A model generated the notes under the pieces. That model did no database searches. It saw nothing but the letters and a program-made list of their open reading frames with translations, and had not been told where the DNA came from. Shown one piece after another: positions 51,932 to 54,453 of a stretch of 64,000 nucleotides of DNA. Position 1 is the first letter of the stretch. Each line of letters opens with the position of its first letter. This stretch comes from a phage: sequence record PZ338877.1, one strand, 5' to 3'. The position numbers were made by a program, and so were the translations under genes.

Positions 51932-52197
51932 TTCCTCGTTTTAAGAACTGCTAAGATTTCTTTAGAGTCTGGTAAGAACCATGTGTAGTGATTCTCTTTG
52001 ATTTCTGGATGAGTGTCAACCTTTATTTTGCACTCTTTACCAACATGCTTAAGCTGTGCTGTGACACCTTGCATAAAGATATGACACATCACGTTGTCCA
52101 TAATGGTTGGTGAGAAATCAACACGCATATAAGTTTCTTTTGGTCGTGGTAGGAGTAAGTACCCTTCTACATAGAAAGTGTCTTCATTCTCTTTCAT
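51928..52197 (-). CDS. hypothetical protein
   Basis: 89 aa. Confidence 0.45.
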   Translation of the reverse strand: MKENEDTFYVEGYLLLPRPKETYMRVDFSPTIMDNVMCHIFMQGVTAQLKHVGKECKIKVDTHPEIKENHYTWFLPDSKEILAVLKTRK

Positions 52198-52463
52198 TGC
52201 TGTTTGTTTCCTAATAAAATCATATCAATAAGGTTATTAGCTTTGATTGTGCACTGGTAAAAACCATCACGATAAAACTCAAGGGCTGCTGCCACATCAC
52301 TACCAGTGTTGCCTTTGACAGTGAATCTTGATTCTTCTTGAGTGTACTTGTCACTCTCACTTACTTGGGAGTTTTTGAATGTACTGTTCACTTTGTTCGT
52401 TGAACACCCTGACATAATTATCAGTAACACAAACATTATAAAACTCTGGCTTAGTTTTTTCAT
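52194..52463 (-). CDS. o-spanin-like outer-membrane lipoprotein (Rz1-like), overlapped architecture
   Basis: 89 aa; signal peptide ending ...IIMSGC (lipobox-like); first ~107 nt overlap the 3' end of the upstream TM/coiled-coil gene in another frame. Confidence 0.4.
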   Translation of the reverse strand: MKKLSQSFIMFVLLIIMSGCSTNKVNSTFKNSQVSESDKYTQEESRFTVKGNTGSDVAAALEFYRDGFYQCTIKANNLIDMILLGNKQQ

Positions 52464-52704
52464 ATGTTAGTACCTCTTTTGTATGCTTATTCTTAGCAAG
52501 CACGTCTTTCAAATCATTTTTGTAACTGGTGCTGAGTGTGACTAAACCTTCCTGATAAGCATCTTTAGCGACACTTATCAGTTTCTCATTATTTAGCTCA
52601 GCTTCAGCAACTTGATAGTCTCTGTAAGAGTATCCTCCCCAGACACCTGCTCCAACTAAGAAAACAATTATGAAAGTAGCTTGACAGAACTCTTTAAATG
52701 TCAT
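52357..52704 (-). CDS. i-spanin-like protein (Rz-like)
   Basis: 115 aa; N-terminal TM helix (FIIVFLVGAGVWGG) then coiled-coil periplasmic domain; contains overlapping lipoprotein gene. Confidence 0.45.
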   Translation of the reverse strand: MTFKEFCQATFIIVFLVGAGVWGGYSYRDYQVAEAELNNEKLISVAKDAYQEGLVTLSTSYKNDLKDVLAKNKHTKEVLTYEKTKPEFYNVCVTDNYVRVFNEQSEQYIQKLPSK

Positions 52705-52723
52705 TTAACAATCTCCTGAAATG

Positions 52724-52744
52724 AAAAAGGCTCCCGAAGGAGCC
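52724..52744 (-). terminator. intrinsic terminator
   Basis: GGCTCC-CGAA-GGAGCC hairpin followed on minus strand by T-run. Confidence 0.55.
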
Positions 52745-52756
52745 TGTATCTTAACC

Positions 52757-53221
52757 TTAACCGAGGACTTTAGCAAGGACATTTGCAGCCATCGAAGAAG
52801 CTTTTGCAGCAGCAGCTACCCCAGCTTTGATAGCGTTATCCTTGATAGCAGATACCGTTGCAGCATCAGTAAAGAGATAAGTAGTTGTTTTAGAACCACT
52901 TGTAAAGGAAAGCATAAGAGCAGTTTCCAGATTGAAAGAGCGATACGGAGCACCTTCTTTAACGATACCTTCAGCACCTAACTCTGAAGCCATACCCATA
53001 TCATAGATAGTCATCAGGTTTTCTTTGTGTGCAGTCGTTGAACCAGCACCTTTGACGTGTTTCTTAACATTCAGAAGAGCACGGTATTCTCGGATGTTCC
53101 CGTCTGCTTTTACATTGACAGCACGGAAAATTTTACCCTCAAAGTTGCTTTTGATAATGTTACGAACTACTTCAGATTTGTTTGCCGTAACGTCCAGTGC
53201 TACCGTAATGATATTGTTCAT
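52757..53221 (-). CDS. hypothetical protein
   Basis: 154 aa; Ala-rich C-terminus. Confidence 0.5.
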   Translation of the reverse strand: MNNIITVALDVTANKSEVVRNIIKSNFEGKIFRAVNVKADGNIREYRALLNVKKHVKGAGSTTAHKENLMTIYDMGMASELGAEGIVKEGAPYRSFNLETALMLSFTSGSKTTTYLFTDAATVSAIKDNAIKAGVAAAAKASSMAANVLAKVLG

Positions 53222-53231
53222 AAGTTTTCTC

Positions 53232-53927
53232 TCAATGTTTTACTAACATAGTTTTAATGTGCGGAAGGATTCTGTTTACCTTCTGAACATTCTTCTCTGT
53301 ATCTTCTATAAAACATACTATATTAAAGTAAGGAAGAATGCAAGACTGAATCATCCTAACTTTCAAACTTTCTGCATTTATAGAGTTAGTTCCAAAACCA
53401 CGCATAAAAAGCATGTAATCATGCTCTATGTAATGCCTTAAAAACATCTCAGTAGGTATTCTCTGAGATTCACCCCTCGCTGTCAAGAGTCCAATGGCAG
53501 CATGATTAGAGATTGCATCAATAATATTGAAAACATACGTTGGCTTTGCACTTACAGAGTCAAGCAAATTAGTGTACTGTGAAAATGACCCATCAATCAA
53601 TTCCGTTGAGAAATCTTCGTGATTAAAATTTGTAAGAACACCATCAATGTCTGCTAAGATAAGGTTACCTTTTTCTACAAGGTCTTTATTGACTATGACT
53701 AAACTGTCACGTCTTACACCTAGAGATTGTCCAGTCTCTTTGTCCACAACGTTCACAACTGGTTCTGATGTGTGGAACTCTTCAAGTGAACATACAACTT
53801 CTCTTGCAGTGTCTTCAAAATCCCTGCACTGTTCTGGAGTCCATATACAGGAATCAAGACCTAACTCATGAGGATGCAAGTCGTAAGCATGACACAGTAC
53901 TTCATCAGACTTTCTTAATTTTTTCAT
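53232..53927 (-). CDS. HAD-family phosphatase-like protein
   Basis: 231 aa; LILADIDGVLTNF resembles HAD motif I (DxDGT/V). Confidence 0.35.
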   Translation of the reverse strand: MKKLRKSDEVLCHAYDLHPHELGLDSCIWTPEQCRDFEDTAREVVCSLEEFHTSEPVVNVVDKETGQSLGVRRDSLVIVNKDLVEKGNLILADIDGVLTNFNHEDFSTELIDGSFSQYTNLLDSVSAKPTYVFNIIDAISNHAAIGLLTARGESQRIPTEMFLRHYIEHDYMLFMRGFGTNSINAESLKVRMIQSCILPYFNIVCFIEDTEKNVQKVNRILPHIKTMLVKH

Positions 53928-54453
53928 GATTTACCTTAGAAATGTTTGTTGCAAATTCACATTGAGCGATGACTTTCATATTGTTATAGACATCTTGAGA
54001 GTATTTCTTAGCTTTAGGGATTTTGTACGAATACCCAGCATTATATGATGCTAAAACTTTTTGTAAAGTCTTCTTTGACTTTGGTTGACCGTGTACCTTA
54101 GTCCAAAATTCAAGCTCTTTGTGTGTTTCCTTTGCAGCATAGTCAAAATCTTTTAAGAGTTTCTTTTTAGCCACATTAGGACTGATTTTGTTACGCTTTA
54201 CAACAGTCTTCAAGTGATTCTGGAAGATACCATAATCATGTGTCTTTTTATTCTCTACATTCAGACCTAACTCTGACTCTTGTAAGGCTATAGCAGCTAG
54301 AGTGATACCCCAACCTTTACCCATATTATTCTCACCATACTGGTAAGCTTTTAGCATGTTTACTTTTTGGCTAATTGATAGCTCTGGGCAGTCAACTGCA
54401 TAAGATAAGTGTGCTGTAAACATTAAGCACAAACCTAGAATCAACTTCTTCAT
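53905..54453 (-). CDS. secreted lytic transglycosylase-like protein
   Basis: 182 aa; signal peptide MKKLILGLCLMFTAHLSYA; SLT-like motifs ALQESELG and YGIFQ. Confidence 0.5.
   Translation of the reverse strand: MKKLILGLCLMFTAHLSYAVDCPELSISQKVNMLKAYQYGENNMGKGWGITLAAIALQESELGLNVENKKTHDYGIFQNHLKTVVKRNKISPNVAKKKLLKDFDYAAKETHKELEFWTKVHGQPKSKKTLQKVLASYNAGYSYKIPKAKKYSQDVYNNMKVIAQCEFATNISKVNHEKIKKV

Follow-up and report, generated by a model that had tools for sequence, protein, structure and literature searches.

Do the genes around positions 51,932 to 54,453 of phage sequence record PZ338877.1 include a pair of spanin genes, and what would a secreted lytic transglycosylase be doing in the same region, far from the endolysin? 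The question was raised by an earlier note on the window (i.e., the whole stretch of 64,000 nucleotides that was analysed, to which all coordinates refer, of a genome of about 86 kb). That note had described a transmembrane protein with an out-of-frame lipoprotein open reading frame (ORF) at its 3' end, a secreted SLT-like protein, a HAD-phosphatase-like gene and a distant GH24 endolysin. All of these ORFs are present where it placed them, on the minus strand in every case other than the endolysin, which is on the plus strand. The region is a conserved block located 3' of rIIA-rIIB in Felixounavirus, and it is equivalent to ORF3-ORF7 of phage Felix O1. The joint explanation we favour, with a probability of about 85%, is that this Felix O1-type block comprises an overlapped spanin pair, a transglycosylase of the T4 Vs.1 family and a PseT-type phosphatase. 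On this reading the block combines two envelope-directed functions with two cytoplasmic genes that are apparently unrelated to those functions. The features that bear on this reading are the following:

52357-52704, minus strand: putative inner-membrane spanin (i-spanin), 115 aa, with an N-terminal transmembrane domain (TMD) at residues 6-24, a periplasmic domain of about 90 aa, and Cys92
52194-52463, minus strand: putative outer-membrane spanin (o-spanin), 89 aa, with a lipoprotein signal, lipobox M-S-G-C20, Ser at +2, and a mature part of 70 aa
52357-52463, minus strand: dual-coding overlap of 107 nt between the i-spanin 3' end and the o-spanin 5' end, in the +1 frame
53905-54453, minus strand: GH23/SLT-type lytic transglycosylase-like protein, 182 aa, with a predicted signal peptide, E59, and homology to T4 Vs.1
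53232-53927, minus strand: PNKP-type HAD phosphatase-domain protein, 231 aa, with a DIDGV motif (D93-V97), cytoplasmic

By megablast, the window belongs to Felixounavirus, with best DNA identities of 97-98% to published Salmonella and E. coli phages. The closest records are Salmonella phage vB Seyj1-1, ph2-2, Escherichia phage SME50, skuden and Mushroom. Positions 51900-54700 matched 258 phage records, 256 of which presented a query coverage of at least 80%. The genus was checked for five relatives: Mushroom, AYO145A and skuden are assigned to Felixounavirus, Sf17 to Mooglevirus, and ST-3 to Kolesnikvirus. The window thus comes from a group of virulent, Felix O1-like myophages that is well covered by sequencing.

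The overlapped spanin genes

The sole hydrophobic segment of the 115-aa protein corresponds to residues 6-24 (mean Kyte-Doolittle value of 1.75), and the remainder, about 90 aa, is hydrophilic. Its probable topology is that of a protein with an N-terminal TMD in the inner membrane and its bulk in the periplasm. The protein matches phrog_1152, labelled 'Rz-like spanin', at E=3.1e-41. The GenBank records of relatives annotate the same ORF as an i-spanin, and Felix O1 ORF6 is labelled 'Rz-like spanin'.

The N-terminus of the 89-aa protein reads MKKLSQSFIMFVLLIIMSG/C20-S21. The sequence starts with MKKLSQSFIMFVLLIIMSGC, in which two lysines (MKK) are followed by a hydrophobic core and the lipobox. 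Given that the residue at +2 is Ser, and not Asp, the protein is compatible with outer-membrane sorting. The mature part (70 aa) contains a conserved Cys71. In profile searches the protein matches phrog_4180, which is unannotated, at E=5e-51, and weakly phrog_456 ('Rz-like spanin') at E=7.9e-5. An o-spanin annotation is present in Mushroom, SME50 and other records. When every ORF of at least 50 aa was scanned for the lipoprotein-signal pattern from every start codon in the six frames of the 64-kb window, this ORF was the single match, and none was obtained in 20 shuffles. The lipoprotein signal is kept in Sf17 and in Erwinia phage Tian.

The o-spanin gene starts at 0.69 of the i-spanin gene length (L) and extends 163 nt beyond the i-spanin stop. 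Good Shine-Dalgarno sequences precede both starts (AGGAG for the i-spanin and AAGAGG for the o-spanin), the second of which sits within the i-spanin gene. Across four relatives, which are phylogenetically non-independent, the 107-nt overlap shows fewer nucleotide differences for its length (15/428) than do the flanks that code in one frame only (153/1616), as expected because of the double coding constraint. Tian, a Kolesnikvirus, presents the same layout, with an annotated i-spanin and an unannotated ORF of 91 aa that carries a lipoprotein signal and lies over the 3' end of the i-spanin gene. Its proteins are 25% (i-spanin, E=8e-11) and 34% (o-spanin, E=9e-15) identical to those of the window. 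The overlapped layout is thereby common to three genera, namely Felixounavirus, Mooglevirus and Kolesnikvirus. Because the signal match is unique, the layout is kept in Tian and substitutions are reduced in the overlap, the pair is more than a chance arrangement.

Each of the two proteins has a single conserved periplasmic cysteine, Cys92 in the i-spanin (invariant in 11 homologs) and Cys71 in the o-spanin. Conserved periplasmic cysteines are a general feature of two-component spanins according to Kongari et al. 2018 (PMC6139136). Judging from the sequences, Cys92 and Cys71 would be available for an intermolecular disulfide.

The claim that a transmembrane protein gene and an out-of-frame lipoprotein ORF at its 3' end form an overlapped spanin pair is therefore borne out by the TMD, the lipobox and the 107-nt overlap in the +1 frame. 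The expression 'classic overlapped Rz/Rz1', however, is right only in its description of the pair as overlapped: the lambda genes are embedded, and the geometry found here is that of P2 LysB/LysC. The wording 'imbedded', used for the spanin pair in the Mushroom announcement (PMC4392139), is likewise imprecise in comparison with the overlapped geometry found.

The lipoprotein ORF might instead encode a stand-alone outer-membrane lipoprotein, e.g., one that blocks a receptor as T5 Llp does, or one that acts in Cor-type exclusion. Its mature part is longer and more structured than that of lambda Rz1 and lacks proline, which would suit such a role. However, the overlap with the gene of a type II membrane protein is conserved across genera, and both C-terminal regions are conserved, with a single periplasmic Cys each. 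In addition, a spanin is required when a phage of Gram-negative hosts has a holin and a soluble endolysin, and the lipoprotein-signal scan of 64 kb of the genome of about 86 kb returned no other candidate for an o-spanin or a u-spanin. Structured o-spanins are, moreover, common according to Kongari et al. 2018 (PMC6139136). On this balance a stand-alone lipoprotein is quite improbable, and the spanin pair is the reading retained.

The start of the o-spanin gene is mis-called in many relatives, so that the annotated protein has 73 aa in skuden (from Met17), 65 aa in both AYO145A and Sf17, and 58 aa in ST-3. The lipoprotein signal is lost with each of these starts, and the gene is wholly absent from the Tian annotation. 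The o-spanin loci in relatives are L003 1795-2016, L002 3795-3992, L013 3273-3470, L014 3600-3776 and L008 7437-7712. The same problem of o-spanin starts and annotation is described by Kongari et al. 2018 (PMC6139136).

The secreted SLT-type protein

The 182-aa protein encoded upstream of the spanins had been described as a transglycosylase with a Sec-type signal, and its motifs, its leader and its fold matches agree with this. The N-terminus reads MKKLILGLCLMFTAHLSYA/VDC, in which a short, strong hydrophobic core precedes a small-x-small site. The predicted signal peptide corresponds to residues 1-19, with cleavage at SYA/VD. The predicted catalytic-type glutamate is E59, in an ES motif. Among 12 homologs, E59-S60, G75-I-F-Q78, S136-Y-N-A-G140 and Y151 are invariant or nearly so, and these columns correspond to the motifs of family 1 lytic transglycosylases. 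Pfam SLT was matched by all 12 aligned homologs at E<0.01, with a best value of 8.2e-12. Cys22 and Cys165 are conserved as a pair out to Kuttervirus, which is consistent with a periplasmic disulfide.

The AlphaFold2 (AF2) model of the protein is all-helical and confident (pLDDT of 83.7). Against the Protein Data Bank (PDB), Foldseek retrieved g-type (goose-type) lysozymes, MltF, MltD, Slt70, Cj0843 and phiKZ gp144 as best matches, with probabilities of 0.9-1.0, TM-scores of about 0.5, and E-values no better than 4e-3. Its viral matches were phage proteins named 'Transglycosylase SLT domain-containing', with TM-scores of about 0.7 and E-values down to 2.6e-9. A single-sequence search of the PDB gave no match, and a profile search gave weak matches to g-type lysozymes only, mixed with spurious kinase matches. 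NCBIfam yielded no meaningful match for any protein of the region.

A named counterpart of this protein exists in T4. In a BLASTP comparison it is 32% identical to T4 Vs.1 over 174 aa (E=3e-17), and the two proteins have similar lengths (182 and 181 aa). This relation was overlooked by the earlier note, as was the identity of the HAD protein with the phosphatase domain of PseT. With tblastn, homologs were found in 2,136 phage records, including T4-like, Kuttervirus, Aeromonas, Acinetobacter and Vibrio phages, and they are named vs.1 in RB51 and Aeromonas phage 31. Vs.1 is named in the record notes of both Felix O1 ORF3 and ST-3, and a marginal SLT similarity of T4 vs.1, a conserved T4-like ORF, was already reported by Nolan et al. 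2006. An exhaustive profile search delimited the Vs.1 family at 589 cluster representatives (E<=1e-10). An N-terminal hydrophobic leader was found in 150 of the 166 members examined (drawn from 18 close homologs plus the 150 best of the 589 representatives), and the [SA]YNxG motif in 150/166. The sequence evidence as a whole points to a small member of the T4 Vs.1 family that is exported by Sec and has the presumed activity of a GH23 lytic transglycosylase.

All close relatives with a checkable source are phage-encoded, coming from GenBank phage records and from one contig of a bacterial assembly that encodes chimallin. This contig, ACBEZJ010000004.1 (L010, GCA_053226485.1, 214,766 bp), is labelled 'Campylobacter coli' and encodes a Vs.1-like SLT protein 1.4 kb from the chimallin gene, the two genes being at 6001-6582 and 8019-9953. 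Chimallin forms the PhiKZ-type phage nucleus shell, and its presence therefore points to a jumbo phage genome within the bacterial assembly. A gene with a weak HATPase_c match, possibly rIIA-like, is located nearby. Among bacterial relatives, specialised transglycosylases of the kind found in type III or type IV secretion systems had been expected, and the 'Campylobacter coli' homolog proved instead to lie on this jumbo-phage contig. Vs.1/SLT homologs that bear on the RegB label discussed below are at L001 5489-6037, L008 3998-4510 and L009 2902-3519.

As to its action, the ORF3 protein would be exported to the periplasm by the Sec route, independently of the holin. There it would most likely nick or loosen peptidoglycan from mid-infection, at a low and non-lethal level of glycan cleavage, so that it may be accessory to lysis or to envelope remodelling, and not the main endolysin. 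In Felix O1, whose ORF numbers were checked against the RefSeq notes, reverse-transcription PCR (RT-PCR; PMC3185647) indicates that ORF3 (SLT-like), ORF4 (HAD), ORF6 (i-spanin) and ORF35 (lysin) peak at 25 min, and that ORF2 and ORF5 peak at 10 min. A literature search for a Felixounavirus transcriptome found no relevant paper.

Several other readings of this protein were weighed. The GenBank records of Mushroom, Erwinia phage Tian, Kuttervirus GEC_vB_N6, ZQ1 and LilPanda label it as a RegB-like endoribonuclease, yet BLASTP gave E=19 to T4 RegB, against E=3e-17 to Vs.1, the product of the neighbouring T4 gene, and no Pfam RegB match was found in the protein. The label seems to go back to a former T4 designation, 'hypothetical 20.7 kD protein in vs-regB intergenic region', still carried by the note on Felix O1 ORF3. 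As no similarity to T4 RegB is seen in BLASTP, the RegB identity is refuted, and its probability is negligible. The earlier note had proposed that the protein may act at DNA injection, i.e., as a virion-associated enzyme that opens peptidoglycan. SLT/GH23 domains do occur in tail and internal proteins of many phages, and the distant Foldseek matches include tape-measure proteins and PRD1 P7. However, the Sec-type leader would direct the protein away from the cytoplasmic site of assembly, and a Sec-exported protein would presumably be unable to enter virions assembled in the cytoplasm. It is, besides, a free-standing protein of the 160-190 aa class without a structural domain, and its gene is in the rII/accessory region, outside the structural module. 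Mass spectrometry identified 17 Felix O1 virion proteins, among which Gp3 is absent (PMC3185647), the protein is unmentioned in the cryo-electron microscopy study of the Bas63 virion, and ORF3 peaks together with the lysin gene. An injection role is thus highly improbable.

A signal-anchor-release (SAR) endolysin, tethered to the inner membrane, activated on depolarisation, and providing a second, holin-independent route to lysis, would likewise have an N-terminal hydrophobic segment on a muralytic domain, and the protein has C22 just past the leader and Cys9 inside it. Some SAR endolysins use such cysteines for thiol-based regulation. However, the hydrophobic core has only about 13 residues (L4-L16, LILGLCLMFTAHL) and is rich in Leu, Ile, Phe and Met, not in Gly, Ala and Ser. 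The small-x-small site S-Y-A/V after the core is, by rule, the pattern of a cleaved Sec signal, leaders across the family resemble ordinary signal peptides, and the conserved C22/C165 pair suggests a structural disulfide, which leaves the SAR reading very unlikely. Less remote, and still doubtful, is a periplasmic role unconnected with lysis, directed at other phages or at envelope maintenance, such as superinfection exclusion, resistance to lysis from without, support of lysis inhibition, or peptidoglycan remodelling in a long infection. Holin-independent export would bring the protein into contact with peptidoglycan long before lysis. The family occurs in over 2,000 genomes of virulent myophages in which a dedicated endolysin is already present, including T4-like, Vi1-like and Felix O1-like phages and a jumbo phage. 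In Ounavirinae the gene is directly or closely 3' of rIIA-rIIB, with a terminator and a -10 element of its own before it, and a lysis phenotype of T4 vs.1 is unreported in the searched literature. Set against this, there is direct evidence for none of the candidate roles, a muralytic enzyme has no obvious means to exclude a superinfecting phage, the 25-min peak of ORF3 is not that of the 5-min early class, and the linkage to rII is absent in T4 and Kuttervirus. We regard it as unlikely that the Vs.1-family transglycosylase is a dedicated periplasmic effector during infection and not a lysis enzyme. Peptidoglycan remodelling for lysis inhibition or large bursts, interference with superinfecting phages, and anhydromuropeptide signals are candidate roles for such an effector.

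A number of observations weigh against the reading of the block as a spanin pair with a Vs.1-family transglycosylase. The Pfam SLT (PF01464) score of the window protein is 18.6 bits (E=1.5e-3), below the gathering cut-off of 21.3. Enzymatic or genetic data on any Vs.1-family member were not found in the searched literature, which holds only the comparative-genomics remark of 2006, and no experimental test of any spanin of the JH2/Felix O1 family was found there either. The RT-PCR timing is coarse and ORF7 is unreported in it, and signal peptides and the lipobox were judged by rule and not with SignalP or LipoP. The AF2 model of the i-spanin is helical (residues 39-57, 65-79, 85-92 and 95-111) at low confidence, with a mean pLDDT of 54, and the coiled-coil character that the earlier note gave it is not established. 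The mature o-spanin has no proline at all, unlike lambda Rz1. Beyond the signal sequences, BLASTP detected no significant similarity to lambda Rz/Rz1, P2 LysB/LysC or T4 PseT.3/PseT.2. Homology to a validated spanin is not required, however, because spanin families are defined by architecture (Kongari et al. 2018, PMC6139136), and the predicted membership of the window pair rests on architecture and targeting signals, as the family is defined in the literature.

Neighbouring genes and scattered lysis functions

A HAD-phosphatase-like gene does lie between the SLT-like gene and the spanins, as had been claimed, and a further gene of 154 aa, which had been overlooked, is also located there. The 231-aa protein matches phrog_3970, phrog_415 and phrog_505. 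In the last of these, residues 84-219 are aligned to positions 158-282 of a polynucleotide kinase (PNK) profile of 295 positions, i.e., to its phosphatase part. The window protein itself has no Pfam match at E<=0.1, and homologs with 34-41% identity score above the gathering threshold of Pfam HAD_PNKP (33.6 and 41.1 against 27.6 bits). No P-loop motif is present in the protein, and neither the protein nor its relatives match AAA_33. A single-sequence search of the PDB gave no match. By its sequence, ORF4 is a PseT-type 3'-phosphatase domain without the kinase, and the GenBank name 'polynucleotide kinase' overstates it; 'HAD-phosphatase-like' is more accurate. A conserved Vs.1-HAD gene pair was sought in Kuttervirus and rejected, the neighbouring gene there being unrelated.

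The remaining features around the block are the following:

55743-58109, minus strand: rIIA homolog, identified from the ORF and relatives' annotations, together with rIIB directly upstream of the cluster
54554-55663, minus strand: rIIB homolog (phrog_609, E=1.8e-89, and relatives' annotations)
54540-54517 (element 54485-54540), minus strand: rIIB terminator hairpin, where AYO145A annotates a terminator
54490-54485, minus strand: perfect TATAAT, about 30 nt upstream of the start of the SLT-like gene, where AYO145A annotates a promoter
52757-53221, minus strand: 154-aa protein, Felix O1 ORF5 (phrog_2267, no assigned function, E=2.4e-50)
52728-52745, minus strand: hairpin resembling a terminator, AGGCTCCTTCGGGAGCCT and then a T-run, located between the 154-aa gene and the ribosome-binding site of the i-spanin

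The order of the region is thus rIIA, rIIB, terminator, Vs.1-like gene, PseT-phosphatase-like gene, 154-aa gene, terminator-like hairpin, i-/o-spanin genes, small genes, and a Macro-domain gene. The TATAAT at 54490-54485 probably acts as the promoter of the SLT-like gene. At the site of the hairpin at 52728-52745, a rho-independent terminator is annotated in phage AYO145A. The 154-aa protein has no signal peptide and no TMD, and no Pfam, NCBIfam or PDB match was found for it. Export signals were found in neither ORF4 nor ORF5 protein. Across Ounavirinae, residues 1-128 of the 154-aa protein are kept, with 61% identity in Erwinia phages, and the tail (about residues 129-154), which is Ala-rich and amphipathic-looking, is replaced in many close relatives.

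Downstream of the spanins, 51928-52197 (minus strand) encodes a protein of 89 aa that matches phrog_4391 (no assigned function), and its start and the o-spanin stop overlap in ATGA. This places the spanins inside a tightly coupled run of small genes, and not in a stand-alone lysis unit. Further on, a Macro-domain protein of 261 aa (PF01661, E=6.6e-8), which corresponds to T4 Tk.4, is encoded at 49713-50498 (minus strand). For Felix O1 ORF13, its equivalent, the record note is '17.5 kD protein in tk-vs intergenic region'. Genes that are scattered in T4 (vs.1, pseT, the spanins and tk.4) thus have their homologs packed into 5 kb located 3' of rIIA-rIIB.

The other lysis functions of the window are these:

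36073-36537, plus strand: GH24 endolysin, soluble, 154 aa (Pfam Phage_lysozyme, E=1.6e-40; phrog_7 endolysin, E=2.6e-57)
2426-2797, minus strand: putative holin with a single TMD (residues 11-29), 123 aa, downstream of tail-fibre genes

The distance of about 16 kb previously given for the GH24 endolysin is accurate, since the gene starts at 36073, at 15.7 kb from the spanins. Its product has no N-terminal hydrophobic segment. The endolysin start codon overlaps the stop of 35189-36073 (plus strand), which encodes a protein of 294 aa with two Ig-like repeats (Hoc/tail-decoration type) that matches phrog_3995 'tail protein'. In its translation the lysin is thus coupled to a gene of structural type, and not to a holin. 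Two genes past the endolysin, at 36980-37387 (plus strand), lies a gene whose skuden ortholog, skuden_76, is annotated as a 'D-alanyl-D-alanine carboxypeptidase'. The encoded protein, which is acidic and has 135 aa, presents no Pfam match and no peptidase motif in its sequence, and the label is probably unfounded. The holin is assigned by annotation: its ortholog skuden_38 is annotated as a holin, its PHROG has no function, and a class III holin with one TMD is described in the Mushroom paper (PMC4392139).

By analogy with the spanins of lambda, P2 and T4, the i-spanin would be held in the inner membrane by its N-terminal TMD, and the o-spanin, after export and lipidation at Cys20, would be directed to the outer membrane (Ser at +2), with the periplasmic domains of the two binding each other across the periplasm. 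The holin would release the GH24 endolysin, and once peptidoglycan is removed, lysis would end with the fusion or disruption of the outer membrane by the spanin complex.

The holin, the endolysin, the spanins and rIIA/rIIB are far apart in the window. The earlier note took this dispersed layout as noteworthy, but a lysis system called 'T4-like', whose genes are scattered, is already published for Felix O1-like phages (PMC4392139; PMC3185647), and the spanins are listed in Kongari et al. 2018.

Comparison with known systems

There is nothing unusual or new in the feature, since the literature or GenBank already has the spanin pair, the dispersal of the lysis genes and the similarity of Vs.1 to SLT. 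Its practical value lies in curation, given that the RegB-like label is wrong, 'polynucleotide kinase' is an overstatement, and the o-spanin gene is truncated or omitted in many records. The role of secreted transglycosylases of the Vs.1 type is a broad question, which concerns thousands of phage genomes, T4 among them, and is not specific to the window. If true, the reading as a periplasmic effector would give a function to a long-standing conserved ORF of T4.

The SLT-like protein shares with T4 Vs.1 the same signal peptide and the ES, GxFQ and SYNxG motifs. In T4, vs.1 lies between regB and vs, whereas the window gene is 3' of rIIB and overlaps the PseT-like gene. The C-terminal domain of Slt70, MltD, MltF, Cj0843 and goose-type lysozymes have the same GH23 fold, together with ES, GLMQ-like, AYNAG-like and Tyr motifs. 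In comparison with these enzymes, the window protein is reduced to one domain of about 160 aa that contains a conserved disulfide pair and lacks accessory domains, and presents a sequence identity of 11-20% and a TM-score of about 0.5. T4 PseT consists of an AAA_33 kinase (E=5e-23) and a HAD_PNKP domain, whereas the window protein has the phosphatase domain only. The two proteins have in common the C-terminal HAD phosphatase, with DxDG[TV] and other HAD motifs, and residues 1-85 of the window protein are unrelated.

With respect to the spanins, Kongari et al. 2018 (PMC6139136) assign both the i- and the o-spanins of Felix01, FO1a, Mushroom, Moogle, WV8 and UAB_phi87 to the overlapped two-component spanin family 'JH2'. 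The Felix O1 ORF6/ORF7 pair (JH2 family, SpaninDB) is orthologous to that of the window, with amino acid identities of 95-100% to Felix O1, Mushroom and skuden, and has the identical 107-nt overlap in the +1 frame, the lipobox and the cysteines. The window is hence another isolate of the genus, with no substantive difference.

The overlapped prototype is P2 LysB/LysC, in which the o-spanin gene starts at 0.66 L (0.69 L here), in the +1 frame, and passes the stop of the i-spanin gene as it does in the window. In lambda, the embedded prototype, Rz1 is wholly inside Rz, whereas the window pair is overlapped. The systems of P2, lambda and the window are alike in that a type II inner-membrane protein is combined with an outer-membrane lipoprotein encoded in the +1 frame, and in their periplasmic cysteines. 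They differ in that the window proteins are shorter (115 and 89 aa), without detectable sequence similarity to those of P2 and lambda, that the window o-spanin is proline-free and predicted to be structured, and that its genes are outside any holin/endolysin lysis cassette. In this last respect the window resembles T4, whose PseT.3/PseT.2 genes are likewise found among accessory genes, distant from e and t, and adjoin a PseT-type phosphatase gene. The T4 genes are separated and upstream of pseT, however, whereas the window pair is overlapped and downstream of the PseT-like gene, and the sequence similarity between the two pairs is limited to the lipoprotein signal.

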